Assembly: GCF_000497125.1 (NCBI RefSeq)
Contig: NC_090603.1
Coordinates: 806,001 to 870,000, forward strand
Reading direction: 5' to 3'
Origin: Spironucleus salmonicida
Lineage: Eukaryota
DNA: 64,000 bases
Numbering within the stretch: the stretch's first letter is position 1; each line of letters begins with the position of its first letter. Under the pieces are notes generated by a model, which worked only from the letters and a program-made list of their open reading frames with translations, ran no database searches and had not been told where the DNA came from. The translations under genes were made by a program, and so were the position numbers. Below, piece by piece: positions 5,304-25,611 of the stretch.

Positions 5304-5593
5304 TTTTAAATAATTAATCATTTATATTATAATTTATTATTAACTTCTTTACTTTATGTTTTCAATCAATTTTTAGATACAAAAGTAAAGGTTAGTAATT
5401 TGGAATATTTAGTTTTTAATGAAAAAACTAAAATTAAGAATGTTTGTATAAACTAAAGAAATAATAATTAATACTATATTTTTTAAAATAACCAAATTAC
5501 ACTTCAATTGTATTAATTATAGTATATCTTTTCTTCAAATCATTTGTTTTACTTTACAAAATTCATTATTTACAAACACGTATCTTCAACTGG

Positions 5594-6529
5594 ATGACCA
5601 GGGCCCAGCCTGCAGTACCGCCTACGTCGAGGAACATTATAGAGTTGCCGTATACGAACGAAATCAAGCAGCTCACCGCAAACTACGCCTCCCAGGAATA
5701 CAACGCCTTCATCAACTCCTGCAACATTCCGGACTGCAAGAGCCTGCTGAAATCGCGCAAGAGCGTGGTGTTCCCGTGCAGGAACGACTTCTACGCAATG
5801 CAGATCACATTCATTCGACCAGTCCACATCCAGTACCTCAACTTCTTCTCCAGTCAGCCTTTCGCATCCAACCTGCGGCAGGTGCGCATGTCCGCAGAAG
5901 GCGTCGAGGTCGGCAACATTGCGCTCAACTCCCGCGGGGGAATGTTCAAGGTGGACCACCCGGACGCTGTCAAGTCCATCCGCTTTGAGTTCAGCGTGTT
6001 CGAGAACAAGTTCCATATGTGCCAGATCGGCAACATCGGGGTGTACGGAAACAACATCCTCAAGATGCTGGAGCAGAACTTCGACGAGACGCTCTTCATG
6101 CGGCAATTCCAGCACGCCCCGGCGAGTGGTGCGGACCATGGCGATTTCGGGCTCGAGTTCCAGCAGGAGAAGGCGCTTAGCAGGAACCTGTTCGTCCGGA
6201 TTAACCAGGACCTGCTGGACCTCACCAAGGAGGCCAATGAGCTCAAGATTCAGCTCGGGCAGGCGATGTTCCTCATCTCGGTGCTCGGGATCGCGATCGT
6301 GGTCCTCGCTGCGGGGGTAGTGCTTCGGGCGTTCTTCTGCCACCGGACCGTCGGCCTGGACGACGTGCAGATGCGGGCCCGCAGCGGGACGCTGGACGGC
6401 CTCCGAGGCGAGATGCTGCAGTGCCTCCAGAACACGTCCTTCACCGACGACCCTGCCGAGGCGTGCAAGCGGATCGCCTCCTGCATGGACCTGCAGCGAA
6501 TGGGGAAGCCCGTGACGCCCACTCAGTGA
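5594..6529 (+). CDS. Mid-SUN (Slp1/SUCO-like) domain membrane protein, 5'-truncated copy, 311 aa
   Basis: NYASQEY...FPC...FASNL...IRFEF...CQIGNIGVYG, then coiled coil and TM helix. No in-frame ATG upstream before the TGA at 5420. Confidence 0.6.
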   Translation: MTRAQPAVPPTSRNIIELPYTNEIKQLTANYASQEYNAFINSCNIPDCKSLLKSRKSVVFPCRNDFYAMQITFIRPVHIQYLNFFSSQPFASNLRQVRMSAEGVEVGNIALNSRGGMFKVDHPDAVKSIRFEFSVFENKFHMCQIGNIGVYGNNILKMLEQNFDETLFMRQFQHAPASGADHGDFGLEFQQEKALSRNLFVRINQDLLDLTKEANELKIQLGQAMFLISVLGIAIVVLAAGVVLRAFFCHRTVGLDDVQMRARSGTLDGLRGEMLQCLQNTSFTDDPAEACKRIASCMDLQRMGKPVTPTQ

Positions 6530-6531
6530 TT

Positions 6532-8160
6532 TCATTCCTCTTGTGCCGCCCAGTACCGGTACGCCAGCACCTCCGCCACCTGGTGCCGGGAGAGGCCGCT
6601 CACCGGGAGGAATGCGGGCACGAAGAGCATCAGCTCGGTGGAAAAGTAGCGATATAGCACGTTCTGGCGCAGCGCCGCGGTCAGGCCCCCGAAGTATCGC
6701 TCCAGCGCAGCGGCAGAGAGGGCCAGCGCCCGGAAACCCAGACCTCCCACTAGCTCGTCCGCAGCGAGCAGTGCCATGTAGATGTCATCGAAGTCGCATG
6801 GCGTGGGGTGATGCATGGCGTCCAGGAGCGACGCGAGGGCCGCCAGTCGCCCCCGGTCCGGCAGCAGGCCCGAGGCGAACTCGAACGCGTCCCTCTCTGC
6901 GGTGGTCAGCTGGTGCAGCACGCCCCGCTGCTCCACGGTCTACTGCACGAGCGCCTGGTCCGCATAGGGGTACAGCGTGCAGAGCGCAAGAAGGTCCGAT
7001 CCCTCGGCCCCCAAGTGGCGCGCGATCTCTCCCACCCTGGGGCCGTCCAGCGCCACCAGCACCTCGCAGTCCAGGCACACTACCGCAGCAGCCGTGCTCA
7101 CGTCGGCCTGCGCTGCGAGCAGGCACCGCGCGGGCCGGTTCAGCAAGGGGCACACCAGCGCGGCGAACTCAGGCGAGGCGAGGCCGGGGTCCAGCACCTC
7201 CCCGAACTCGACCAGGCAGAACATCTCCGCTAGGCGCATCCCGGGGACCTCCGCAAAGAGCACCCGCAGCTCCCTCGCCACCGCCACGGCAGACGTCGCC
7301 CGCCCCTCGGCCAACTCGCGGTAGTACACCAGCATGAGGCCCGTGGCATGCAGCCAGCCGCTCTCGCTCTGTCCCAGGAACTGCATGCGCTCTGGTACCG
7401 TGGGGAGGCGTTCCAGCTCGGCGTAGAAGGCCGCGTTGTCGTCGCCGTCGCGGGCCAGGACGGCGCTGAAGGAGCCAGCGCGCAGGGCGGTGAAGCAGAG
7501 GAACTCCAGCACGAGCCCGTTCTCAGGCAGCGCCTCGCCCAGCTGCAGGATGTGCCGTACTGAGAGGTGCCGCTGGCCGATGCAGGCACAGAGTGCGCCC
7601 GTGGGGATCGCCGGGACGGCCGCGCACAGCTGGTCCGTGGTGAGGTGCTCCGGGGCCAGTTACCCAGCACCGACGAGCTCCAATAGCATCGTGTCGTCTA
7701 CTGCGGCGAGAGCGACCTTGTGCTGGAGGGATAGCCGCGCACCGTCCACCTTCCCGGCCAGTGCCGCCAGCTCGCGGGCCCGGAAGTAGCCCGCGTTCGC
7801 GAGCGCCATGCCCAGCACCTCTGCGCCCACCTCAGAGCCGGTGAAGTGGGCGCTCTTGAACACGAGCACGAGCTGGAAGACCTGCCGCTGCCGGGCCAGC
7901 GCCAGCACCGCCGGAAAGCTGCGCAGCATCTGCAGCTGGGCGGCCAAAGGGTCCGCCTCCTGCACCAGGGCGCGCGCCTCGCGTTCGTCCGGGGCCAGGC
8001 GCAGCGCGAACACCCGGGCCAGCAGGTCCTCCAGGGCGGCCGACGACCGCGGGGGCGCGTGAAAGTCAGCGAAGGGCGAGAAGAGGGGCGCCAGGGCCTC
8101 CGGGGCGAGGGCGAAGTCGCGGTGCCGGAGGGCGCGCAGCAGGTGCAGGCCGGTCGACAT
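6532..8160 (-). CDS. Hypothetical Leu/Ala-rich helical protein, 542 aa (IR1 copy)
   Basis: Track ORFs 7660-8184, 6940-7512 and 6532-6936 are one frame joined through a TAA and a TAG; strong GC3 bias. Confidence 0.75.
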
Positions 8161-8189
8161 TATGACCCGTCGCAGAGAGCCCACTCCAA

Positions 8190-8564
8190 ATGCTATTCAC
8201 GCGCGAGAACCCGCGGCCGGTGCGCGCGCAGGCCTTCTTCAGCGACGACTTCGAGGCGGTGGTGGTGCCGCTGCTGGCTCCCCGCGCGCCCTGTCCGGCG
8301 GAACGGCCCCCGGACGTCCCGGAGGGAGGGACGACTCCCCAGCCGCCCCGCATGTTCCGCTTCGACGTTAGCAGGGCCCGCCTGGAGTTCCAGGCCCGGG
8401 CCGTGTTCTGCGAGGTGTCCACCATGCACCCGCGGTCCAGGATCGGGCCGCCGCGCGCCACCCCCCGGCCTGCCAGCAGCGCTGCGACGCCGACCAACTG
8501 GGTGGCGCTGGCCCCCAACGAGAGCGCAATCCGCCTGCAGCGAATGGTGGGGAGCGGGAAGTGA
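8190..8564 (+). CDS. Hypothetical protein, 124 aa (IR1 copy)
   Basis: CCACTCCAA-ATG start context, ends AAGTGA, fills the gap between neighbours. Confidence 0.6.
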   Translation: MLFTRENPRPVRAQAFFSDDFEAVVVPLLAPRAPCPAERPPDVPEGGTTPQPPRMFRFDVSRARLEFQARAVFCEVSTMHPRSRIGPPRATPRPASSAATPTNWVALAPNESAIRLQRMVGSGK

Positions 8565-8573
8565 CCACTCCAA

Positions 8574-8801
8574 ATGGACGAGCGCGAGTTCGTGGCGGCC
8601 GGCTTCATCCAGGACCTCCTGCTCCGACAGACGCCCCGCACGGCCCAGTACGACGCTGAGGTGGCCGAGGGCGTGGCGGCCGTGGACGCGGAGCTGCGGG
8701 GGCTTGAGACGCAGCTAGCGGAGCTCACGGAGCGCGAGGGCCGGATATTGCAGGAGCAGCAGATTTACCTCGAGAAGATAGCCGCGCTGGAGCAGTAGTG
8801 A
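8574..8801 (+). CDS. Small coiled-coil protein, 75 aa (IR1 copy)
   Basis: CCACTCCAA-ATG start, heptad-like pattern, ends TAG TGA. Confidence 0.7.
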
Positions 8802-8810
8802 TGTGTTCTC

Positions 8811-10175
8811 TCACTTGTGGTTGGCGAAGATCCTGCCGTACACCTCGTACGCGCTCCAGAGGTCCGCGACGCCGCACACCTCGAAGGGGCTGTGCATGTT
8901 CAGGAGGCCGGGGCCCATGTCCACCACGGGGGCGTTCATGCGTTCGCCGATGAACTTCGCGATGGTGCCGCCGCCGCCGATGTCGATTCTGCCGAGGTTG
9001 GCGAACTGGTAGAGGAAGTCGTCGCCGACGCAGGTGCGGATGGCGTGCAGCAGCTCCGTCGGGGCCTCGGACGACCCGTTCTTGCCCCCAGAGCCGGTGT
9101 AGCGACTGAGCCCGATGCCGCGGTTCATCACTGCGGCGTTGAGCTTGTCGTGCACCGCGGGGAAGTTCGGGTCGAAGAGGGCCGTGACGTCCGCCGAGAC
9201 CAGCAGCGACCTGTAGAAGGCGCGGGCGTGCTGGCGCTCGGCGAGGCCCAGCGCGTACATGACGTCCTTGAGGGTGTACACGAGCGAGCCGGACTGGGCG
9301 CCCGTGCAGCCGCTGGAGCCGGTCTCCTCGTAGCCATAGATGCAGGCGACGGCCGTAGCCGCGGGGGTGTCCTGGAGGTCCACCAGGGCGTGCATCTCGG
9401 TGAACACGCAGATGCCGTCGTCCTGGCCGGGACCGCCGATCATGCTGCGGTCGAGGCCGACGAAGCGCGCGGGGAAGGCGGGGAAGAGCTGAAACTCGCA
9501 GAAGGGTACCTCGGCGGCGGTGACCCCGGTCTCGCGTTCGAGGAGCGCCAGGAAGGCGGGCGTCATCTCGACCGTGTCGTCCGCTGGGGCCGACATGGCG
9601 AGCGTGTTGAGCTCCTCGCCCTTCACGACGTCGCGCATCTTGCGCTCTGCCTGCTCCGACGAGAGGTGGATGAGCAGGTCGGGGATCGTGAACACCGGGT
9701 CGGAGGGCTTGTCGCCGACGGTGAAGGAGTGCAGCCCGTCGGGGCGCTGCACGAACCCCTTGAGCATCATGGGCGTGGTGGCCTGCTGGTACTTCTTGAC
9801 GCCGCCGAAGTAGTGGCACTTGAGCGTGACCACGCCCTGGTCCTTCATCGCGTTCACGAAGTTGGGCTTGAGGTCCAAGTGCGGGTAGTCCCCGTGCGCC
9901 CCCACGAAGGTGAAGCCCGAGTCAGCGGTGGCGGTGCCGCACACGCCAGCGATCAGGCTCTTGTGGTGGTTCACGTAGAAGAACCTGTCGCCGGGGCGGA
10001 GGCCGGCCTCGTCGCCGAGCTCGCGATGCACGAATCCTTTGGAGAGCAGGAGGGCCTGGGCCCACTGGACGCGCTCCCTGTCAGCGTGGTACTTGCTGAG
10101 GAAGCCGAGGTACTCGTCGGCCAAAGAGCGCATCTTCAGCGTCTGCTCCGGCGTAAGCTTTCCGAATAGTGACAT
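8811..10175 (-). CDS. M18 family (aspartyl-type) aminopeptidase, 454 aa, intact copy
   Basis: GAHGDYP, HYFGGVKKYQ, GQDD, EETGS, SADV, GGGTI and MHSPFE motifs. ATG at 10173-10175. Confidence 0.9.
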   Translation of the reverse strand: MSLFGKLTPEQTLKMRSLADEYLGFLSKYHADRERVQWAQALLLSKGFVHRELGDEAGLRPGDRFFYVNHHKSLIAGVCGTATADSGFTFVGAHGDYPHLDLKPNFVNAMKDQGVVTLKCHYFGGVKKYQQATTPMMLKGFVQRPDGLHSFTVGDKPSDPVFTIPDLLIHLSSEQAERKMRDVVKGEELNTLAMSAPADDTVEMTPAFLALLERETGVTAAEVPFCEFQLFPAFPARFVGLDRSMIGGPGQDDGICVFTEMHALVDLQDTPAATAVACIYGYEETGSSGCTGAQSGSLVYTLKDVMYALGLAERQHARAFYRSLLVSADVTALFDPNFPAVHDKLNAAVMNRGIGLSRYTGSGGKNGSSEAPTELLHAIRTCVGDDFLYQFANLGRIDIGGGGTIAKFIGERMNAPVVDMGPGLLNMHSPFEVCGVADLWSAYEVYGRIFANHK

Positions 10176-10738
10176 TGTTGAAACAATCAAATAAAATATT
10201 ATTTATATTATTATATATCAGAATACCATAAATATTATGTGGATTTAGTAGACTCAAATGAATAATAAAATAAAAATAACACATTTTATTTTTACATTTT
10301 TTCAAATCTCTAAATTTTATTTATGTATATATACAGGTTTCAGCTTTTTGTGAATTGATTACTTAGAGTCGAATATATGAAATTTGTATCTAAGTATAAA
10401 TATTATCTTCGATTTACTTTAGCTTATTATATGTTATTATATAATTACTAAAATTATAATGATTAATTGATTTAATATATTATAGCAGTAATAAACTTTT
10501 AATACAATTGATTGAAAGAAAAATATGCTGTTCAACAATTTTTCTTTAATACATAGAAAGTTTTAGTAAAATGAATATTAGATACTTATATTAGTTATGA
10601 TAAGTTAATATTCAACTAACACATAAGATTACTGTCTATGTATTTAGCAATTTAATTTTAACTTTATAAATGTTCTAATACTCTTATTATATATTTATTA
10701 TACAGTTATTATGTTTTAGATGATACTTTCCTTTTAAT

Positions 10739-11026
10739 ATGGCAAATAACGCTGGTGCTTAAAATTATTTAAAGTATCTTGCTAATCCTAGTAAACAAGA
10801 TTTTAAAACATTCAACGAAGATTTATTACCATTACTCTGTCTATTTCTGTAAATAGTATTGTCTCTTGCAGGGTTGGTTTTTTCAGCCACTCCTCTTTTC
10901 TATATCGCTTTCATTGCTGCTTATTATCACATTGGATCATCAACAAATAAAATGTATTCATTATTTGCATTGATTCCGCTAACACTATACACACTTCATA
11001 AGTGGAAGATCACAAATTTCGATTGA
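10739..11026 (+). CDS. Small membrane protein, 95 aa
   Basis: Open code-6 frame with hydrophobic segments. Confidence 0.55.
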
Positions 11027-11076
11027 TTTATAATATTATATACTATATATACTATTATTTATAGTTTTCATTAAAA

Positions 11077-12699
11077 ATGTCATTTATTTTACCTGGTGAT
11101 GAATAGTCTATTTTCTCAAAAAATCAATTTGAGAACAATTAATATAGAATATTAAGACCTTTCTTACGATCTACATCAAATTCTGCATTTAAACCTCTTC
11201 CTGAAGAAACACTTCTTCGCACTATTTCTTACATCCTTATTGATCTTTTCCCTAATGTCTCTTTATAATAATTTTCACCAAAAGAGCTAACTATTTATAC
11301 ATATGATCGTGTTCGTTCTGTATCTGTAAACTTACGGAAAAGCTATCACATTGATAAACTGCTGGCACCTGTTTCAACACTAATTGCTTGTTATGAACGA
11401 AGCTTGCTAACAGATGCTTAACCTTAAGAAATTATAGATTTTTAGAATGCTAGTTCGAATTGGCTTTTTTTACGAAATGAGTTTTTTGGAAATCTAAATA
11501 TTAGTAAAGTTATCATTTAAGAAGCATTAAATGATGTTGTAGCATTAAAAAAATTAGCTGTGAATTTTTTTAAATTTGGAGATATAATATAAGGAATGTT
11601 AGCCTGTGAAGCATTAGGGAGGGTACGTTTTGCACTTTAAACCAAGAATATCGCTAACGGAATAGATTATACGATAAATAATTAAATTATGGAAAAAGTT
11701 AAACTAAATAACGAGTTTAAATATGATATGATCGAATGGGCATGTCATGAGATGTATTTATGTGATTAAAGCTTCGATTTTTTATACAATCGTTAGTTTA
11801 TTGCCAATTGTTTTAGAAAAACAATACAAGATAATTAATTTGCTAAATTTGTACCAATAAGGGCGACTTGGGCGATAAAACCTATAATTTTACTTTAAAA
11901 TTAAATTAAACCGTTATAAATTACTACAGTAACTCGTAATTACGAAAATATTCAAAAACCAATTATTTAAAGCCGAATACAATTAGAATAATAACGTTCA
12001 GACACACCTTTTATTTAAATTGAACCTATAACGATAAATATCACTCATTAACCTACTTTTCCAACTGTATTAACCTCTAGAGTATGTTAGGATCAAGACC
12101 AGATGGAACCGCCACAAAAGTCTTAAGAAATATCTAAATTAGTATTGAATAGTTTTATTTAAAACCAGAAAGAAGATACGAGTGTATAAAATATTTTTTA
12201 ATAAAAACTTAATTGCGCGTAATTGCCTCTAAATGATACTAAAGTAACTTAACCTATATTTATAATGCCCCAAAGTGCTGAAAAATTAGTCCCACATAAA
12301 GTTATTACTTCAATTCCTTAAGAATAAATACATGCGAATTTCCCTTCTGCACCAAAGTAAGGTGATAGTCCTATAAAATTTTGTGTACAGTCTACTTCAA
12401 AACCTACTGAATAGAAATGCTAAAATAATAAGAATCTAGATGTTCTAAATATACCAACTAAAATAGATCTTTAGAACATACGTGAGATGGTTAAGTTACT
12501 ATAATAAAGACTTCTTTTGGAAAAAATTTATGATGCACAAATCCACGTGTTACATTAAGAAAAATTACGAAAAATTATGGAAGGAATAGAAAATGACAAT
12601 GTGGAAATTTAATCTGCTATATTATCTTAATAGGCTGCATCTCAAGAACCTTATGGAAATGCACGATATATTATTTAAAAATTTTGGTATTTAGACTGA
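11077..12699 (+). CDS. Hypothetical protein, 540 aa
   Basis: ATG and TGA in one frame; coding-like, Gln(TAA)-rich composition. Confidence 0.65.
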
Positions 12700-12999
12700 T
12701 GCTTATCTTTATATTTTGAATTAGATTCTAGTTAGGATATGAGTTTATGATGATATTATTATTATTTTATTTATCATAATATAAATCTTTAAATTGATTG
12801 CAAAACAAGAAATAAGGTTTGTTAATTTGAAAATAATATATATTTAAAAAGGTATATTTTATGTAATTCAACATTAAATGTATATATTTAAGTTTATAAT
12901 TGTCATATAACTTTTATCGAAAACCTCTAAAATATTTAAGAGCATTTATTGTCTCAATATTATTATATTATTAAAAATAAGCGCTATGAAATTTAATAA

Positions 13000-13722
13000 A
13001 TGAAGTATTTTATTTATCAGTATGAGTTGCCTTTTCCAAGTAAAGAATATAACATTGCATAACATTATATAGTTGGATAATCTGAAAAATCTACTTCTAA
13101 TTCAATTGAAATTCTATCTGATGAGCTTATTGAGATGCAGACTGAAAGTGGACCATAAGTGGACTTGAATTCACATAAAATTATTCATATTAATAGAATT
13201 GTACCAAAAACATTATCAAAATTGATTCCAAGCTATGCCGAATAACTTGATGAGAAGTCATAAACTAGAGGGTTTGAAGTTATTACAACTTAGATATGTA
13301 AGAATAAACCTGAGGCCTTTAAGCTTATAATTCATACAATGACTTTTGACGAAAAATAAGTAAAAATTCCAAGTTGTTTTACAGAGTTATAAGGAGAAAA
13401 GAAAATAGAAATTATCGATGTTTCGCTGAATAAAGAAATGGATCAGCTATAGGAGAAAGGTAAAATAAATCATAACAATTACTTCTTAGGCAAATAAAAA
13501 TGCTATTGTATGAAATTAATCTGTATTGAAACATCAATATTTGGGAAAAGCGTTATAGAGTCTGGAATTGGAAGTAAGATGAAGAAGGTATTTATTAATA
13601 ATTTTAAGAATTTGATTAGCTGCTATGATAGCTGGAAAGGATTTGATATTAAAGATATTAAAAATCTAAGATAAGGTAAGGGCGTAGAATAAGGAGAAGA
13701 ATTTCAAGATGATGAAAAATGA
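13000..13722 (+). CDS. Phosphatidylinositol transfer protein (PITP, START-like class), 240 aa
   Basis: YELPF..EYNIAQHY, SHKIIHI...VPK, DEKS, CYCMKL and CYDSWKGFDIKDI match the PITP layout. Confidence 0.8.
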
Positions 13723-13732
13723 CAATAGCTTA

Positions 13733-13978
13733 TCACTAAATTTTTTCTAAAATTTAATTAACAAAACTTTAATTGATCTCCTTTTATTAAATAGTTCGCG
13801 TAAGAGCAAAAATAGAATTAGATGAAAACGGATGCTATTAAGGTTATTCTGGGTAATATGAGTCTGTTTTATTAAGCCAAAATGGTATATGTGCATTATA
13901 TGTAGTTCTATTATCACCTGTTAATAGCTTTTCTTTTGAATAGGGAAGTTATATTTCTTATTGATATTTTCTATTCAT
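13733..13978 (-). CDS. Small hypothetical protein, 81 aa
   Basis: ATG-TGA code-6 frame ending TAGTGA. Confidence 0.5.
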
Positions 13979-14088
13979 TTAAAATTTAATGACTATATTA
14001 ATATATTAAGTACTCTAGTAGTTTATATTTTATAGAAATATTATAAATTAATATATTATATATATCATAAATCATAAATTTTCTAATT

Positions 14089-15360
14089 ATGTCTGATGCG
14101 CTAGCATCGTTTAGATCCGCATCAGAACAAGCTTCTCAACTTAAATCCAACGTTAATAATAGTATAATAAATTAGAATACTACTCATAATTCTGCTTTCT
14201 ACTCTAATAATTCAATCAACTCAAATAATTCATTTTCATCAACTAATTCACCACGTTAAAAAAATCAACACAAGCAAAGCTTTGCACAAAATATCGCCAA
14301 TTATTAGGAAATATCTGCGAAACCTCCTTAAGCTACTCCTGATTTGGCTGTTCTTTATGAAAAAATATCACTTAAAGATAGAAAAATCAGAGAACTTGAA
14401 AATGAAATATCATTCATTTCTGATCAACTAGTATCATTAAAATCAGCTTCATCGAATGATTAAAATTTCACTATTTTAAACGATTTGACTATAGCAAAAA
14501 CTTAAATTTCTGCATAAAGAAATGAAATTAAAATACTTAAAGCATCTTTAGAAACTCAAGAAATCACAGTATCACGTCTCAAGGTAATTTTAAGTTTTAG
14601 AGAGAAATAGCTTGCCATTTAGAGCGAAAAGAAGCCTCCTCTCACCGTCAAAAAGTAGAAGCTATCTGAAGAAGTAAAAAATCTTATTTTGGCAAATAAA
14701 AAACTATCAGAACAATTATTTAAAAACCGTGAGAAATTGACACGGGAATAATTTCTTGTTCTTTAGTAAGAGAAAATAACAGAAGCTGTAGAGATTGAAA
14801 CACGTATTATTTATGAGTAAAAAGCAGAAATTTTGGATTAAATGAATATACTGAAATAAGAGAATAAATAGCAACAGAAAATTATTCGCATACTTGAAAC
14901 TGAAGCTTCTAAATCTATAGAGGCAACAGATTCAAAATTTAGAAAATAAATTGGCGAATTAAAATAGGAAATACTAGATTTGGACAGTTAATTGGGTAAT
15001 AAAAATCGATAATTAGCAACAGCTTAAAATCGCACAAGATCTTATGAATAACAAACCCTTATATACAAAGATGTTTCTGAATTAAAATCAGAAGCTATAA
15101 GTAGGCATCTACGCAACAATAATGATTTGAAGTTAGAAATGAAAATGCGAAATTATGAGACAAAGTCTATACTTAAATCGGCCAGTAATTAGATTTCAGA
15201 AAAATTAATGCAAATGAAACGTGAAAATCAAAAAATCTGTTAAGAATATAATATTTTGGCAAAAAAAACGAGCTCAGAAACTCGTGCTGAAGAAAAATTG
15301 AGGGATATATATTAATAGCTAAACGAGATTAAAGAGCTCACTGAGTGACTTGAAATTTGA
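14089..15360 (+). CDS. Coiled-coil protein, 423 aa
   Basis: Code-6 frame; Ser/Asn-rich N-terminus followed by E/K/Q-rich heptads. Confidence 0.75.
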
Positions 15361-16003
15361 ATGATTTTCCTGATAAAAACAAAGAAATTTCATCTAATTA
15401 ATTCTAATTAAGATTTAGTTTAATATGATAGGTTATTTACCTCTATAAATGTATAGAAAAGGATTTATTTTAAAAACTTGTATTAAGGTATAACAATTAT
15501 ATATTTTCATTTGCAAAAATATCGAATTTAAGCTATTATTAACTATTTATTGGTATATCTGTATCCTTAGATAATTCAAAGACACTCATTTATCGATTTC
15601 TTAGATAAAATAAAAGCTAAATTTATAGATCTAAAATACTTGGTTGAAAAGCCAATGATGCCTATACTTACATCAGAAATGTTTGATCTGTTTAGATATT
15701 TATAACTTCGTCCTTGCACTCTGCCGCTAAAATAATGAGACCCGAAATCAAGTTTCTAGAGTATGAAGAATGTACAGTATAATGATATAACATTGTTTCT
15801 TTTGTAAAAATTTTTAGTTCGTTGTTATCAGCTATTATGCGATAATATGATATATTATGTTAAAGTTTTTCTGGGAAAATAATTGGGATAGCAAATTTAT
15901 TAGGAATTTTTAGATCCATTTATCGTATTAGTTTTCTATATCGTGTGACCTGAGATTGGATAAGGTCATTGTGTAGGTTTAGTATTTTGTTAAACTTTGG
16001 CAT
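15338..16003 (-). CDS. Hypothetical protein, 221 aa
   Basis: Open code-6 frame ending CAGTGA; 3' end overlaps the convergent gene by 23 nt. Confidence 0.55.
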
Positions 16004-16051
16004 TTACTGATTATAAATATTATTTATATTATAGTAAACCTTATTACAAAA

Positions 16052-17164
16052 ATGATAATTTTCGCTAAAAACAAATAAATCGTTAAATCTCAATAAATTG
16101 ATCAACCAATACTTTAAAACCTACTAAATACAACTGATACCTACTTTGCGACTGACTTTCCAGCGTTTCCAAATGCTTTTAAATCTCACTACCTCAACTC
16201 AACCTTTATTTACATGAACTAGTTTGTTTAAATCTCTACAATTTCCCCAATGATGGACCATTTATGCTAGATATTCTATTTTTATTACGCAAATGATCTG
16301 CCAAAAGATTCAGATGACTTGATTATATCGACGCTCAATTATCTAAAATTGACTATAATGTCTTAAACAGAAATAGCTAAAATTTCAAGTAGTTTCAGAC
16401 CATTTGTAGTACAAAAAAGCAATTCAATTGTTCAAAAATTAATATATGAGGATTATAATGTCCTGAATAACTGTTATTGCATATATCACTCCGTTTAGTA
16501 CAAAAACTTGTGTTTATCAGAAATCGGCGCCCCGAAATTTGTTTTTGGGTTGTTGCATCGCATCTTACATTCTTAAGACAGAGTAATTTAACGTGAAATT
16601 TGCACTCCGGTGTTTGATGAAATCATCGGCACTGCTCCCCAAACTTGGATTTTAGATAAAAATTTCGATTTTAAGGGATAGGCTGATTAGTTAGAATTCA
16701 GTCCAAATTCGAGTTTTTAGTCCAAATTTTCAAAACCTGCCTATCTAATTTTCAGCCAGAAAGACGATATTTCATGCCTAAAAATTGTTACTGGAACGCT
16801 GCGCCCTGAGATAATTTTGGGAACGAATATTGTCGAAATGCTTAACTAGCAGAAATACATGAATAGCATTCAAATGATAGTTACGAATTCAATAGAAACC
16901 CTCGAAAAATTAGACTTGAGAAGCGGAGAAATTGTGTTTTAAAATAATAAGCTATTTTGTATTTCAAATTTAACCCTATAAATGGATTTGGTTGAGAGCA
17001 TTATTAAAAATTTATATTTCAAAGAGAACGAAAAGTATGAAAATTTGACTTCTGATAGTCAGATTATGAGTATTGGGTATAATTTGTATGTTGGAAGAAC
17101 TGAAAATTGCATTGTTATTAGCTAGAGATAAGATATGGAAATTGATATTTTTAATGGCTTATGA
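16052..17164 (+). CDS. Hypothetical protein, 370 aa
   Basis: ATG and TGA in frame; AGTGA immediately after the stop. Confidence 0.65.
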
Positions 17165-17215
17165 AGTGAGAACATATATTATTATATACCAAATTAAGAT
17201 ATTTAAAATATTATA

Positions 17216-18049
17216 ATGCCAAAATTAATTTCAACAGAAATTATAAGTAAGCAGAAGATCAATCTATAGTTACATCCATATACATAATTTTTAGCAGCTT
17301 CTAATAATCAATTCCTAACTAATTTACTTCCGTGTAACACATAACATATATTTAAGTATAACCTATAAACAAAAACTTTTCACTATTTAGAATATTCTAA
17401 TAACATATTAGTAACTAAATTCACAAAATTATTCACCCATATTATAATTGGAGTATTTGTCAGTGAGTAGACTGCGTCTATCCTCTATTTCTAAGGGTCC
17501 CTGGCTGAGCTTAATTTAGATACATTAAGTATCAACCAAGAAAGAAAAATATTCACACCAATTTTTGCATTCTCAAGTAATTCTTTAATCAAAGTTATAT
17601 AGTAAAAATATGTGGTTTGTAATGATAGTATTCAAGAGTTTTAACATTAATTTGGCTTCAATTTTAAGAATATTATTACAGATGGAAACAATGTATTTGT
17701 TACTAATTAAGATGTTTACTAAATCAATAAGTAAGAAATTAAGAAATATAATGTTGGTCTTTTGGGGATTACATAATAAGGATGGGAAGTTGTATAAAAA
17801 TAGGGAAAGTTATATATGGACGGATAATATTTGTAGAATGGAGTATTTATAACCATGTGGATGGAATACTTAGTGGAAAAGCGTGATAACGGTTTGTAAT
17901 TATATAAAATAGTAGACTATTGTAAAATAATGAAATATAACATGTATGATGGCATTACAGACATAATATTCAGTTTTGAAGGCATGTTAATGCAAAGAAA
18001 TGGATCTTTGTTATGGTTTAATAATTTTTATATAGATGATAATTAATGA
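17216..18049 (+). CDS. Hypothetical beta-strand-rich protein, 277 aa
   Basis: Frame translated through without a TGA. Confidence 0.6.
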
Positions 18050-18122
18050 TATTGTAATATTAATATTATTGCCTTCCAGAATATCCCTGTTCGGAAAGCT
18101 TACGCCGGAGCAGACGCTGAAG

Positions 18123-19445
18123 ATGCGCTCTTTGGCCGACGAGTACCTCGGCTTCCTCAGCAAGTACCACGCTGACAGGGAGCGCGTCCAGTGGGCCCAG
18201 GCCCTCCTGCTCTCCAAAGGATTCGTGCATCGCGAGCTCGGCGACGAGGCCGGCCTCCGCCCCGGCGACAGGTTCTTCTACGTGAACCACCACAAGAGCC
18301 TGATCGCTGGCGTGTGCGGCACCGCCACCGCTGACTCGGGCTTCACCTTCGTGGGGGCGCACGGGGACTACCCGCACTTGGACCTCAAGCCCAACTTCGT
18401 GAACGCGATGAAGGACCAGGGCGTGGTCACGCTCAAGTGCCACTACTTCGGTGGCGTCAAGAAGTACCAGCAGGCCACCACGCCCATGATCCTCAAGGGG
18501 TTCGTGCAGCGCCCCGACGGGCTGCACTCCTTCACCGTCGGCGACAAGCCCTCCGACCCGGTGTTCACGATCCCCGACCTGCTCATCCACCTCTCGTCGG
18601 AGCAGGCAGAGCGCAAGATGCGCGACGTCGTGAAGGGCGAGGAGCTCAACACGCTCGCCATGTCGGCCCCAGCGGACGACACGGTCGAGATGACGCCCGC
18701 CTTCCTGGCGCTCCTCGAACGCGAGACCGGGGTCACCGCCGCCGAGGTACCCTTCTGCGAGTTTCAGCTCTTCCCCGCCTTCCCCGCGCGCTTCGTCGGC
18801 CTCGACCGCAGCATGATCGGCGGTCCCGGCCAGGACGACGGCATCTGCGTGTTCACCGAGATGCACGCCCTGGTGGACCTCCAGGACACCCCCGCGGCTA
18901 CGGCCGTCGCCTGCATCTATGGCTACGAGGAGACCGGCTCCAGCGGCTGCACGGGCGCCCAGTCCGGCTCGCTCGTGTACACCCTCAAGGACGTCATGTA
19001 CGCGCTGGGCCTCGCCGAGCGCCAGCACGCCCGCGCCTTCTACAGGTCGCTGCTGGTCTCGGCGGACGTCACGGCCCTCTTCGACCCGAACTTCCCCGCG
19101 GTGCACGACAAGCTCAACGCCGCAGTGATGAACCGCGGCATCGGGCTCAGTCGCTACACCGGCTCTGGGGGCAAGAACGGGTCGTCCGAGGCCCCGACGG
19201 AGCTGCTGCACGCCATCCGCACCTGCGTCGGCGACGACTTCCTCTACCAGTTCGCCAACCTCGGCAGAATCGACATCGGCGGCGGCGGCACCATCGCGAA
19301 GTTCATCGGCGAACGCATGAACGCCCCCGTGGTGGACATGGGCCCCGGCCTCCTGAACATGCACAGCCCCTTCGAGGTGTGCGGCGTCGCGGACCTCTGG
19401 AGCGCGTACGAGGTGTACGGCAGGATCTTCGCCAACCACAAGTGA
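18123..19445 (+). CDS. M18 aminopeptidase copy lacking the original start codon (ATA at 18081); 440 aa from the next Met
   Basis: ATA TCC CTG TTC GGA here versus ATG TCA CTA TTC GGA in the left copy; the rest is nearly identical. Confidence 0.75.
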   Translation: MRSLADEYLGFLSKYHADRERVQWAQALLLSKGFVHRELGDEAGLRPGDRFFYVNHHKSLIAGVCGTATADSGFTFVGAHGDYPHLDLKPNFVNAMKDQGVVTLKCHYFGGVKKYQQATTPMILKGFVQRPDGLHSFTVGDKPSDPVFTIPDLLIHLSSEQAERKMRDVVKGEELNTLAMSAPADDTVEMTPAFLALLERETGVTAAEVPFCEFQLFPAFPARFVGLDRSMIGGPGQDDGICVFTEMHALVDLQDTPAATAVACIYGYEETGSSGCTGAQSGSLVYTLKDVMYALGLAERQHARAFYRSLLVSADVTALFDPNFPAVHDKLNAAVMNRGIGLSRYTGSGGKNGSSEAPTELLHAIRTCVGDDFLYQFANLGRIDIGGGGTIAKFIGERMNAPVVDMGPGLLNMHSPFEVCGVADLWSAYEVYGRIFANHK

Positions 19446-19454
19446 GAGAACACA

Positions 19455-19682
19455 TCACTACTGCTCCAGCGCGGCTATCTTCTCGAGGTAAATCTGCTGC
19501 TCCTGCAATATCCGGCCCTCGCGCTCCGTGAGCTCCGCTAGCTGCGTCTCAAGCCCCCGCAGCTCCGCGTCCACGGCCGCCACGCCCTCGGCCACCTCAG
19601 CGTCGTACTGGGCCGTGCGGGGCGTCTGTCGGAGCAGGAGGTCCTGGATGAAGCCGGCCGCCACGAACTCGCGCTCGTCCAT
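19455..19682 (-). CDS. Small coiled-coil protein, 75 aa (IR1 copy)
   Basis: Mirror of 8574-8801. Confidence 0.7.
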
Positions 19683-19691
19683 TTGGAGTGG

Positions 19692-20066
19692 TCACTTCCC
19701 GCTCCCCACCATTCGCTGCAGGCGGATTGCGCTCTCGTTGGGGGCCAGCGCCACCCAGTTGGTCGGCGTCGCAGCGCTGCTGGCAGGCCGGGGGGTGGCG
19801 CGCGGCGGCCCGATCCTGGACCGCGGGTGCATGGTGGACACCTCGCAGAACACGGCCCGGGCCTGGAACTCCAGGCGGGCCCTGCTAACGTCGAAGCGGA
19901 ACATGCGGGGCGGCTGGGGAGTCGTCCCTCCCTCCGGGACGTCCGGGGGCCGTTCCGCCGGACAGGGCGCGCGGGGAGCCAGCAGCGGCACCACCACCGC
20001 CTCGAAGTCGTCGCTGAAGAAGGCCTGCGCGCGCACCGGCCGCGGGTTCTCGCGCGTGAATAGCAT
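19692..20066 (-). CDS. Hypothetical protein, 124 aa (IR1 copy)
   Basis: Mirror of 8190-8564. Confidence 0.6.
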   Translation of the reverse strand: MLFTRENPRPVRAQAFFSDDFEAVVVPLLAPRAPCPAERPPDVPEGGTTPQPPRMFRFDVSRARLEFQARAVFCEVSTMHPRSRIGPPRATPRPASSAATPTNWVALAPNESAIRLQRMVGSGK

Positions 20067-20095
20067 TTGGAGTGGGCTCTCTGCGACGGGTCATA

Positions 20096-21724
20096 ATGTC
20101 GACCGGCCTGCACCTGCTGCGCGCCCTCCGGCACCGCGACTTCGCCCTCGCCCCGGAGGCCCTGGCGCCCCTCTTCTCGCCCTTCGCTGACTTTCACGCG
20201 CCCCCGCGGTCGTCGGCCGCCCTGGAGGACCTGCTGGCCCGGGTGTTCGCGCTGCGCCTGGCCCCGGACGAACGCGAGGCGCGCGCCCTGGTGCAGGAGG
20301 CGGACCCTTTGGCCGCCCAGCTGCAGATGCTGCGCAGCTTTCCGGCGGTGCTGGCGCTGGCCCGGCAGCGGCAGGTCTTCCAGCTCGTGCTCGTGTTCAA
20401 GAGCGCCCACTTCACCGGCTCTGAGGTGGGCGCAGAGGTGCTGGGCATGGCGCTCGCGAACGCGGGCTACTTCCGGGCCCGCGAGCTGGCGGCACTGGCC
20501 GGGAAGGTGGACGGTGCGCGGCTATCCCTCCAGCACAAGGTCGCTCTCGCCGCAGTAGACGACACGATTCTATTGGAGCTCGTCGGTGCTGGGTAACTGG
20601 CCCCGGAGCACCTCACCACGGACCAGCTGTGCGCGGCCGTCCCGGCGATCCCCACGGGCGCACTCTGTGCCTGCATCGGCCAGCGGCACCTCTCAGCACG
20701 GCACATCCTGCAGCTGGGCGAGGCGCTGCCTGAGAACGGGCTCGTGCTGGAGTTCCTCTGCTTCACCGCCCTGCGCGCTGGCTCCTTCAGCGCCGTCCTG
20801 GCCCGCGACGGCGACGACAACGCGGCCTTCTACGCCGAGCTGGAACGCCTCCCCACGGTACCAGAGCGCATGCAGTTCCTGGGACAGAGCGAGAGCGGCT
20901 GGCTGCATGCCACGGGCCTCATGCTGGTGTACTACCGCGAACTGGCCGAGGGGCGGGCGACGTCTGCCGTGGCGGTGGCGAGGGAGCTGCGGGTGCTCTT
21001 TGCGGAGGTCCCCGGGATGCGCCTAGCGGAGATGTTCTGCCTGGTCGAGTTCGGGGAGGTGCTGGACCCCGGCCTCGCCTCGCCTGAGTTCGCCGCGCTG
21101 GTGTGCCCCTTGCTGAACCGGCCCGCGCGGTGCCTGCTCGCAGCGCAGGCCGACGTGAGCACGGCTGCTGCGGTAGTGTGCCTGGACTGCGAGGTGCTGG
21201 TGGCGCTGGACGGCCCCAGGGTGGGAGAGATCGCGCGCCACTTGGGGGCCGAGGGATCGGACCTTCTTGCGCTCTGCACGCTGTACCCCTATGCGGACCA
21301 GGCGCTCGTGCAGTAGACCGTGGAGCAGCGGGGCGTGCTGCACCAGCTGACCACCGCAGAGAGGGACGCGTTCGAGTTCGCCTCGGGCCTGCTGCCGGAC
21401 CGGGGGCGACTGGCGGCCCTCGCGTCGCTCCTGGACGCCATGCATCACCCCACGCCATGCGACTTCGATGACATCTACATGGCACTGCTCGCTGCGGACG
21501 AGCTAGTGGGAGGTCTGGGTTTCCGGGCGCTGGCCCTCTCTGCCGCTGCGCTGGAGCGATACTTCGGGGGCCTGACCGCGGCGCTGCGCCAGAACGTGCT
21601 ATATCGCTACTTTTCCACCGAGCTGATGCTCTTCGTGCCCGCATTCCTCCCGGTGAGCGGCCTCTCCCGGCACCAGGTGGCGGAGGTGCTGGCGTACCGG
21701 TACTGGGCGGCACAAGAGGAATGA
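20096..21724 (+). CDS. Hypothetical helical protein, 542 aa (IR1 copy)
   Basis: Mirror of 6532-8160. Confidence 0.75.
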
Positions 21725-21726
21725 AA

Positions 21727-22812
21727 TCACTGAGTGGGCGTCACGGGCTTCCCCATTCGCTGCAGATCCATGCAGGAGGCGATCCGCTTGCACGCCTCGG
21801 CAGGGTCGTCGGTGAAGGACGTGTTCTGGAGGCACTGCAGCATCTCGCCTCGGAGGCCGTCCAGCGTCCCGCTGCGGGCCCGCATCTGCACGTCGTCCAG
21901 GCCGACGGTCCGGTGGCAGAAGAACGCCCGAAGCACTACCCCCGCAGCGAGGACCACGATCGCGATCCCGAGCACCGAGATGAGGAACATCGCCTGCCCG
22001 AGCTGAATCTTGAGCTCATTGGCCTCCTTGGTGAGGTCCAGCAGGTCCTGGTTAATCCGGACGAACAGGTTCCTGCTAAGCGCCTTCTCCTGCTGGAACT
22101 CGAGCCCGAAATCGCCATGGTCCGCACCACTCACCGGGGCGTGCTGGAATTACCGCATGAAGAGCGTCTCGTCGAAGTTCTGCTCCAGCATCTTGAGGAT
22201 GTTGTTTCCGTACACCCCGATGTTGCCGATCTGGCACATATGGAACTTGTTCTCGAACACGCTGAACTCAAAGCGGATGGACTTGACAGCGTCCGGGTGG
22301 TCCACCTTGAACATTCCCCCGCGGGAGTTGAGCGCAATGTTGCCGACCTCGACGCCTTCTGCGGACATGCGCACCTGCCGCAGGTTGGATGCGAAAGGCT
22401 GGCTGGAGAAGAAGTTGAGGTACTGGATGTGAACTGGCCGAATGAATGTGATCTGCATTGCGTAGAAGTCGTTCCTGCACGGGAACACCACGCTCTTGCG
22501 CGATTTCAGCAGGCTCTTGCAGTCCGGAATGTTGCAGGAGTTGATGAAGGCGTTGTATTCCTGGGAGGCGTAGTTTGCGGTGAGCTGCTTGATTTCGTTC
22601 GTATACGGCAACTCTATAATGTTCCTCGACGTAGGCGGTACTGCAGGCTGGGCCCTGGTCATCCAGTTGAAGTTATGTGTTAGATGCTGCTGAATTACAA
22701 TTATTGAAAATGTTAATAGAAAACTATAGGCGAATAAATTCATCCGTAATGACCTCTAAGGTACTACATCACGTTTCTATTTATTTTACTAATCATTGCA
22801 ACAATAACTCAT
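21727..22812 (-). CDS. Mid-SUN (Slp1/SUCO-like) membrane protein, full-length copy, 361 aa
   Basis: Frame extends beyond the arm into AT-rich DNA (MSYCC...LFAYSFLLTFSIIVI, a TM helix). Internal TAA at 22150-22152 corresponds to CAA in the other copy. Confidence 0.72.
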
Positions 22813-22917: not shown

Positions 22918-24087
22918 ATGTTCAAAAGTTGTTCAAAGTCTTAACAGCATAAAAATCAGTTCATTAAGTTTACAGAAGATGCTATTATATCATAACATCC
23001 TATAGATTCTAATAATTGTCTTTATGGCACCTCGTAAGGTCAATTATTTCTTTACTCTTTTGATACCAGGATTCCATAACTTATTGCATAATTCGAATCA
23101 GATGCAATTAGAACAATTGACTGTTATAATCGTGAAGCATTTATAGGATGTTAATCTGGCTCTGTTTATTTGATAAATCTGTCTGCTCAACAACCATCTT
23201 TATTAGGAAAATTAAATTCAGCAGTAACCAGATTATATATTTTTGGTGGAGGAAACAACCTTTATATCTATGCTGCTACAAAATCTTGTAGACTTTCAGC
23301 TTTTCAGCTTGTACTTGTCCGATCTTCGTTCTCTGGTAGTCTTAATAAGTAGCCCTCATCAGATATTTAAAAATAAACATAGACAATTTTGCAGATCACA
23401 TTAGAAGAAAATATATTTGTTAAACATAATTTAGAACTTTTATAGTCTGAAGAAGAGTCTTCAGATAGTAAAATTAGTCACGTACATTCTTATATTAACC
23501 TAGTAACTTAAGATCCAAATAATCCAGTTCTTCCATCATGGACCCAAAAATATCACTTTGCAACCCCAACTTACCTTCATGGTTGTGAAGGAATCATAGC
23601 ATTTTGTGCTGAGGACAAAACTGTCCGTTTTTATAATATTTTAACCTTCCAGGAAATGAGCGAATTTAGGCATGACAGACTATTCCCAACCAGTTGCCAT
23701 ATGTTTGAGAAACTATTTAGAGGGCAAAAGACACTATTTTGTATCATTGGATATAATGGTACTGGTACAGATGGAGGGGAAGTTTTTATGATGAATATCA
23801 AAGAAAACGATGTTTTCAAAGTTGATTTAAAATGTCAATTTATCGGTGGAATTCGAGCAATATCGTGCATTGATGAAAAGATACTCATCTCTGATAGGGT
23901 TTGTTGGCGTATTTTTGATCAGGAATATCAATAAATTGCAAAGTATGAGTTTAAAGACGAAAATCCGATAAGACTGGAATATTTTGAGAATGGTAATGAA
24001 ATTATACACTATCTTACATATAATTAGGGTGTATGTGGTAGAGTTAAGTGGAACGGTGCCGCATTTAAGACTGATTTTATTGAGTGA
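22918..24087 (+). CDS. WD40-like beta-propeller protein, 389 aa
   Basis: YGTSQGQLFLY, IGCQSGSVYLI and CAEDKTVRFY blade-like motifs; joins track ORFs 23170 and 23656; ends GAGTGA. Confidence 0.7.
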
Positions 24088-25116: not shown

Positions 25117-25611
25117 ATGAGCACTCTGGTCGTGCCCGAAGCGGAGGCAGGCAAGGCGGCCTACCTGATCCGGCGCTTCGGCCTGGCTGGGGTCGTGCCG
25201 CACCCCCTCTCCTACTACTGCCTGCAGCGCTCCTTCTTCGACGCCGGCCCGCTGTAGCCGCGCCTCTTCTTCCGCCGGCCGGTCGAGGCGGGCCGCTGGG
25301 TCGCTGTGTCCCACATCTCGCAGTCGCTGGAGGCCGACCTGATAGTTTCCGACGACTTCGGGACCGCCGTCGGCGCCCTGCTCCTCGCAGCCGGGGTGGA
25401 GCTGGCGCCCGCGAGCGCTGCCCAGGCCGAGCGGGAGCTGGGCAGGAGACCCGTGTATCGGGAGCTGGACCGCATCACGGCCATCCCGGGTGTGGGCCCG
25501 GTGCAGGGCCAGCACCTCCTGGAGCAGTTCGGCAGCCTGCGCGAGATCATGCGCCTGGTGCGCGGGGGGCATCGCCTGGGCATCCGGGGTCTGGAGCAGA
25601 TGCTGCAGTGA
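25117..25611 (+). CDS. ERCC1/FAAP24-like helix-hairpin-helix protein, 164 aa (IR2 copy)
   Basis: ITAIPGVGPVQGQHLLEQFGSLREI HhH motif; CCACTCCAC-ATG start; one internal TAG. Confidence 0.65.

Follow-up and report, generated by a model that had tools for sequence, protein, structure and literature searches.

Opposite-arm differences at the gene starts bordering a GC-rich inverted repeat of Spironucleus salmonicida, and their possible origin at conversion-tract edges

Why should two nearly identical arms of an inverted repeat differ precisely where the genes at their edges begin? The question is raised by a repeat, here called IR1, in Spironucleus salmonicida (RefSeq assembly GCF_000497125.1, contig NC_090603.1, forward-strand positions 806,001 to 870,000; this stretch of 64,000 nucleotides (nt) is the window, and its numbering is used below unless C8 or C5 precedes a position). 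The window contains two inverted repeats rich in guanine and cytosine (GC), IR1 and IR2. At the inner edge of IR1 the gene for an M18 aminopeptidase has an ATG in the left arm and an ATA in the right arm; at the outer edge the gene for a predicted membrane protein has a possible N-terminal leader with a start codon in the right arm only. The explanation that we favour, with moderate confidence, is independent decay of sequence outside a conversion tract, the mutual dependence of the arms being a by-product by which the repeat is not maintained.

The DNA was read with translation table 6, in which TAA and TAG encode glutamine (a Spironucleus salmonicida-like code), because long AT-rich frames stay open only under this reading and because a public protein almost identical to that of the 542-aa arm gene is assigned to Spironucleus salmonicida. 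The core of IR1 is an inverted duplication of 4,583 nt, far beyond chance, with a GC-rich left arm at 5584–10166 (GC 0.67) and a right arm at 18090–22672 that is its reverse complement except for 12 differences (99.7% identity; 8 silent, 4 missense, no frame breaks). The difference between CAA at 6104 and TAA at 22152, previously proposed to tell the arms apart, is real, although it is silent (Gln/Gln) under table 6. Differences that mark the arms include 5818–5854/22438–22402 in the gene for the membrane protein and 9765 and 9804/18491 and 18452 in that for the aminopeptidase, and the two aminopeptidases can be told apart at residue 137 (Met or, in the right arm, Ile). According to a whole-genome search the block exists in exactly two copies. 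At each of the four edges the GC content, taken over 60 nt, steps sharply from 0.17–0.28 outside to 0.55–0.58 inside. Between the arms lies a single-copy, AT-rich spacer of 7.9 kb (10167–18089), which by geometry is inverted by any crossover between the arms. The core is bordered by decayed fringes. The outer one (5560–5583) matches 22673–22696 at 15 of 24 nt (p 0.002 versus draws from the partner flank). The inner one comprises, on the left, 10167–10201, with the aminopeptidase ATG and a 7-nt AT block common to 18055–18061, and, on the right, 18055–18089 (plus strand), an AT-rich block and a C-rich stretch followed by ATA TCC CTG; here 21 of 36 nt match (p 0.001, for one of six lengths tried). 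A fringe identity of 58–62% over 24–36 nt at both edges is modest evidence of age for IR1 itself. Between the arm flanks no homology was found at longer range than the fringes, and a metagenome scan found no related locus that could serve as outgroup.

The inner-edge gene (8811–10175, minus strand) encodes a full-length aminopeptidase of the ApeA/aminopeptidase I type with 454 amino acids (aa). Its match to PF02127 (E 3e-64, 217.8 bits) is over the cut-off, it is 48–51% identical to aminopeptidase I of Hexamita inflata, it aligns nearly full length with PDB entries 1y7e, 2glj and 2glf (E 2e-87 to 1e-78), and H94, D252-D253, E283-E284, D329 and H428 are invariant in 16 aligned sequences. The protein is thus like known members of M18 aminopeptidase 1 (ApeA type), and the duplication is its sole unusual feature here. 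The left copy starts with ATG TCA CTA (ATG at 10175–10173), just as the sequence-only reading of this locus had reported. The second copy (18081–19445, plus strand) begins in the assembled sequence with ATA TCC CTG, and this ATA indeed follows by 31 nt the TGA (18047–18049) of an upstream open reading frame (ORF; 277 aa, 17216–18049, plus strand) that is in the public records and has a weak coding score. Contrary to what was claimed, the right copy is not truncated: its frame is whole, a single base of the start codon differs, and fallback ATGs are present, namely at 18036 (469 aa) and at Met15 (18123; 440 aa, the public model), with others in frame at 17946, 17949 and 18000. The ATA lies 7 nt outside the IR1 core. 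All three differences in the first aminopeptidase codons are at third positions and would fit G/C to A changes from ATG TCC CTG.

Since homologues extend past the column of Met15 (at least 14 residues precede it in 117 of 119) and keep an aromatic residue at position 4 (Trp in 103 of 119; Phe4 here), the 454-aa form is taken to be the natural full length. Start contexts were scored at 23 sites with a matrix built from 54 unambiguous starts on contig C8. The context of the ATA at 18081 is the best of all 23 (6.0 bits) and lies above 96% of the 54 true starts when each is left out in turn, for which reason we regard this ATA as a former or present start; the left ATG scores 1.8, the ATG at 18036 1.3 and Met15 −1.3 bits. 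The right fringe also fits a promoter layout of AT-rich block, C-rich stretch and A-rich end that is described for Spironucleus salmonicida in the available text of one report (PMC3916229). Both copies were presumably kept working for a long time, and the ATA would be an allele, an error or a substitution of a single base that came late. The public records contain a 440-aa aminopeptidase starting at Met15, in agreement with the absent ATG, though this is a gene model rather than read evidence. The other M18 peptidase in the genome is only 24% identical and belongs to a different subfamily. Part of the 3′ end of the gene for this distant enzyme (451 aa, C5:1238168-1239391) recurs in inverted orientation some 7.4 kb away (C5:1230720-1230839); the locus is likely to be one more inverted repeat in which a gene is cut.

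At the outer edge the right copy of the membrane protein gene (21727–22812, minus strand) would encode 361 aa if translation starts at 22812, comprising a tail, a weakly hydrophobic stretch, a beta-sandwich domain, a helical region and a C-terminal membrane helix. The left copy (5594–6529, plus strand) encodes 311 aa from a Met common to both copies (22662/5594). The genome has these two copies only. In the right frame, ATGs stand at 22812, 22743 and 22662; the first, 50 codons ahead of the shared Met, has a context of 3.2 bits, a score that equals the median for true starts and exceeds those of 97.7% of internal ATGs, whereas the shared Met lacks an A at positions −3 to −1, a state seen in only one of 54 clear starts. 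In addition, a separate public fragment begins at 22812. We consider it fairly likely that the long form starting there is the real one. The earlier proposal of a full right-hand gene from 22812 thus stands as far as frame and context are concerned; codon usage and the public 311-aa models, to which we return, disagree with it. No homologue besides the protein itself was found among 2,831 candidates or 1.84 billion representatives, and no PDB sequence matched at E 10.

The left frame is open from 5423, and its leader (5423–5593, plus strand) has no in-frame ATG and resembles the right leader only within the fringe. The first in-frame ATG is that at 5594; those at 5356, 5419 and 5440 are out of frame. 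The left copy was said to lack its N-terminal ~50 aa including the transmembrane anchor. The first part agrees with the absence of any in-frame ATG before 5594, but the strong C-terminal helix (KD19 2.96, residues 276–294 of the 361-aa form) is kept in both copies, and all that is missing is a marginally hydrophobic stretch (KD19 1.76, residues 22–40), which is present only if translation starts at 22812 or 22743. We also considered the left leader as a diverged or frameshifted N-terminus and rejected it: neither its DNA nor its translation resembles the right leader significantly (p 0.15–0.31). It does have 57 open codons with a hydrophobic stretch (p 0.025 versus intergenic frames), and the ATG at 5440, shifted from the frame by a single base, lies about 4 nt from where the ATG at 22812 would be mirrored; open frames are common by chance, however (47% of intergenic 50-codon frames), and such an origin appears only remotely possible.

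How might the two edges have come to differ in opposite directions? On the reading that we favour, IR1 would be an old inverted duplication of a five-gene block whose arms are kept near-identical and GC-rich by arm-to-arm gene conversion. Sequence just beyond the conversion tract would be unprotected and decay, and a gene whose 5′ end crosses the tract edge may lose it in either arm. At the outer edge the leader would have been lost from, or never received by, the left copy of the membrane protein gene. At the inner edge both arms would have obtained the aminopeptidase start and its promoter, the right ATG later changing to ATA, a change tolerated because the left copy provides the enzyme. The order of events would have been duplication, long homogenisation, left leader loss and then the change of the right ATG, and the two losses, being independent, would have fallen on opposite arms by happenstance and so produced mutual dependence. 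The pattern that points to such decay consists of the GC steps at all edges, the scarcity of core differences (12) and the decayed fringes of 24–36 nt at both edges. The right arm is probably the original or donor locus, as weakly suggested by its distances of 31 and 105 nt to neighbouring ORFs, compared with the 976 and 901 nt without coding signal that flank the left arm. The outer neighbour of the right arm, a WD40-like gene (22918–24087, plus strand), is divergent from the ATG at 22812, with 105 nt between. Mutual dependence would hold only on condition that both genes matter, that the fallback starts are poor and that the spacer has not flipped. It should be noted that crossing over at any point of the 4.6-kb core inverts the spacer, with the result that both good starts come to lie on the right arm, and that if the conversion tract extended by 7 nt more, one aminopeptidase start codon would be replaced by the other. 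Because of this dependence on spacer orientation and of the position of the ATA only 7 nt outside the core, the reciprocity is in principle reversible.

Whether reciprocity matters for the persistence of such repeats was judged from a survey of C8:40001-1060000 (1,020,000 nt) for inverted matches of at least 500 nt and at least 96% identity (n = 36). Removal of 18 matches in a multicopy region at 79–198 kb and of 5 with GC below 0.5, and the merging of 2, left 12 simple GC-rich two-copy pairs. Their edges, classed by eye from ORF scores and inspection in what is a small sample, comprise 1 reciprocal pair (IR1), 7 asymmetric at one edge, 1 with both losses on the same arm, 2 without loss and 1 unclear. 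Asymmetric edges are thus found in 9 of the 12, and the two-edge cases split into one reciprocal and one same-arm. None of the other 10 classifiable pairs is reciprocal, and these persist at 97–99.9% identity (GC 0.54–0.70). In the same-arm pair, C8:587882-593797 (1.2 kb, 99.8% identity, GC 0.70), an ankyrin and an ankyrin/FYVE gene are both whole on the left arm. C8:351760 and C8:554011 at first appeared to be further reciprocal pairs and were dismissed on inspection. The partners at several edges retain whole or recognisable but diverged ends. For example, at C8:434831-453525 the partner copy retains a recognisable N-terminus interrupted by a stop; at the outer edge of IR2 (24100–24636/37835–38371) a 178-aa frame is whole in both arms, identical in the core, with an AT-rich C-terminal part of 76 residues that is diverged yet homologous; and the outer-edge gene of C8:351760-371608 is whole in both arms with diverged N-termini. 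For this reason the edges are often to be understood as tract ends inside older duplicates. At the inner edge of IR2 (35842–36339/26132–26420), by comparison, a 165-aa gene begins inside the repeat and is whole on the right arm only, the left copy running into unrelated sequence after about 21 codons.

A number of observations weigh against our reading. The left aminopeptidase, which is the functional one, starts in a weaker context (1.8 bits) than the supposedly dead right copy, whose context is the strongest, and this requires that the ATA arose recently, is an allele or is an error; the argument from 31 nt depends on the 277-aa neighbour, for which no homologue was found; and gene conversion and its GC bias, as well as the order of the losses and any effect on the proteins, are deduced from the pattern in the DNA. 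The survey classes were assigned by eye, and the gap statistics are unreliable in that the gene finder misses genes. Both public membrane proteins have 311 aa and start at the shared Met, and the codon usage of the 50-codon leader from 22812 is intergenic-like (−4.0, with none of 39 gene starts as low), although this comparison is biased against the leader, the 39 starts having been picked by the same score and a hydrophobic segment being atypical. These last points lead to a rival that we regard as doubtful but not far-fetched, namely that no true reciprocal loss exists: both membrane proteins may start at the shared Met, or the right aminopeptidase may be made anyway (from Met15, the ATG at 18036 or the ATA itself), or the ATA may be an allele or assembly error. 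The sequence-only reading had itself offered shortened N-terminal isoforms as an alternative, and these match the public models, one aminopeptidase of 440 aa and two membrane proteins of 311 aa. Moreover, the leader has no homologue to back it, the right aminopeptidase frame is whole behind the best-scored promoter-like context, and a start at 18036 would retain every conserved residue. However, the contexts of the shared Met and of Met15 are poor, and the latter start drops the conserved aromatic residue; the ATG at 18036 sits within the upstream ORF; and 22812 has both a typical context and a public fragment that begins there. Giardia is furthermore reported, in the available text of PMC3066225, to lack ribosome scanning, a report that is for Giardia and not for Spironucleus.

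The idea that each arm became indispensable through reciprocal loss, and that the repeat persists on this account, fares less well, and we think it improbable as a selected lock. In its favour, each gene has two copies only and, in the assembled orientation, each arm has one unique good start; deletion of either arm would indeed cost one gene, as had been predicted, provided that both losses are real and the spacer lies as assembled. But the survey speaks against locking, ten other pairs persisting without reciprocity, one of them with both whole genes on a single arm, and the GC enrichment and flank divergence must predate the ATA, whose surroundings are still intact. A core crossover would, by the geometry given above, bring the good starts together, and primate X palindromes show frequent spacer inversions, about 50% between species in the portion of the study available (PMC8327919). 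A variant that we consider unlikely, if slightly less so, is that one changed start codon in the donor arm made a dispensable inverted duplicate part of a mutually dependent pair, toggled by spacer orientation, or that the ATA, its promoter context being intact, works as a non-AUG start and gives copy-specific enzyme levels; if such a dependence switch is real, selection acts against arm loss of the flipped isomer in one spacer state only. Least probable of all appears an origin in the rearrangement itself, in which each arm would have acquired a new junction beside a native one, either because the breaks of an inversion were staggered or because the spacer flipped after a duplication. In Drosophila, staggered breaks have been put forward as the source of inverted duplications on both sides of inversions (17 of 29, according to the available text of PMC1885836); their geometry leaves one native flank per arm, and the outer edge of IR1 looks as if the leader had been cut through. 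Both arms retain at the inner edge, however, the position of the start codon, the codons for Ser and Leu and some 26 nt of similar sequence upstream, so that the aminopeptidase was duplicated whole and its loss is a point change. Both right-arm junctions, moreover, look native; the evidence is weak, but a spacer flip alone was downgraded on this ground as the origin of the reciprocity.

The membrane protein had also been called SUN-like. Its layout does resemble that of the plant mid-SUN proteins SUN3/4, which are described, as far as the available text goes, as having an N-terminal tail, a membrane segment, a beta-sandwich domain, a helical or coiled region and a C-terminal membrane helix (PMC10180911). 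The overall domain order is alike, whereas the protein studied here matches them neither in sequence nor by profile, has a single clear C-terminal helix where they have two, and has only a weakly hydrophobic N-terminal segment. It has no Pfam match at E 10, including the SUN profile PF07738. A SUN search across the genome gave no match anywhere, but its controls gave none either. A single-sequence model of the middle domain is a beta-sandwich of poor confidence (pLDDT 54.5), and the model of the full-length protein is too poor to use (pLDDT 48.8). With the middle-domain model Foldseek gave a best E of 2e-4 to CBM32, with APC10 and discoidin domains also near, and VIA a best Z of 7.4 (root-mean-square deviation 2.8, 92 aligned residues), none reaching Z 8. 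The SUN domain is counted in the galactose-binding-like fold group. A SUN chain is absent among the fold matches listed, which leaves the family possible. NYAS and VYG motifs at the domain ends are presumably reminiscent of mid-SUN domains, and family searches do not support the resemblance. On the SUN domain together with the nuclear envelope in Spironucleus nothing was found in open-access text. A mid-SUN-like layout would be present if translation starts at 22812 or 22743, membership of the family being unproven.

The remaining genes of IR1 are whole in both arms. They are a protein of 542 aa of no known family (6532–8160, minus strand; mirror 20096–21724) and two small genes of 124 aa (8190–8564) and 75 aa (8574–8801), both on the plus strand at 8190–8801 (mirror 19455–20066). 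Of the two variable sites 7559 and 7687 of the 542-aa gene, a named public protein agrees with the left arm at one and with the right arm at the other, and this mosaic may reflect conversion, crossover or a collapsed assembly. IR2 contains a 164-aa gene (25117–25611) with a weak C-terminal helix-hairpin-helix match (E 0.001–0.005, below the cut-off), which is possibly a DNA-repair factor inside a repeat. Elsewhere on the contig, the spacer gene of C8:587882-593797 has a high third-position GC content over about 280 codons outside the arm, which suggests that the conversion tract was once longer; the outer-edge gene of C8:351760-371608 looks like a sugar kinase; and C8:79661-197471 is a dense nest of 18 overlapping inverted matches of up to 15 kb and mixed GC.

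IR1 is not without relatives among known systems. It is a palindrome in the sense of having near-identical inverted arms around a single-copy spacer, its arms being older than their identity implies, as seen from the diverged fringes and the gene ends of IR2. Primate X palindromes have near-identical inverted arms containing genes and a single-copy spacer that arm recombination can invert; IR1 differs from what the available text describes in its short arms (4.6 kb), compact protist genome, sharp GC step (0.67 versus ~0.27) and edges at gene starts (PMC8327919). GC-rich segments with native genes of high third-position GC (PMC1805757) and duplicated regions with 44.7% GC versus 30.7% elsewhere, making up 19.2% of the genome (PMC9509377), are described for Spironucleus salmonicida; IR1 is likewise a GC-rich duplicated segment, whereas inverted orientation, tract edges and edge-gene decay are not described in the portions of these two accounts available. 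Drosophila staggered-break inversions also have inverted copies of unique genes flanking a segment, but these duplicates average ~88% identity and decay, while identity between the IR1 arms is 99.7% and their inner-edge gene was copied in full (PMC1885836, as far as its text is available).

In duplication-degeneration-complementation both copies of a duplicated block are kept because they have lost different functions. The arms of IR1 would likewise each have lost a different function, although in IR1 the bodies are homogenised, the losses are limited to the tract edges, a single base accounts for one of them, and the complementation depends on spacer orientation. In open-access text we found neither an earlier description of the locus nor a case of reciprocal loss at the edges of a repeat in a diplomonad. 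Both palindromes that undergo conversion and duplicates that degenerate reciprocally are nevertheless already known, and IR1 is a real but ordinary instance of them. As a general reason for the retention of GC-rich inverted repeats in the genome of Spironucleus salmonicida, locking fails on the contig survey. For annotation, the public models of the 311-aa membrane proteins and the 440-aa aminopeptidase may be mis-started, and a mid-SUN protein in a diplomonad, if true, would be of some interest on its own. If RNA and protein data confirm the two losses, IR1 would be a compact example of how conversion-tract edges can create complementary gene loss within a homogenised repeat.

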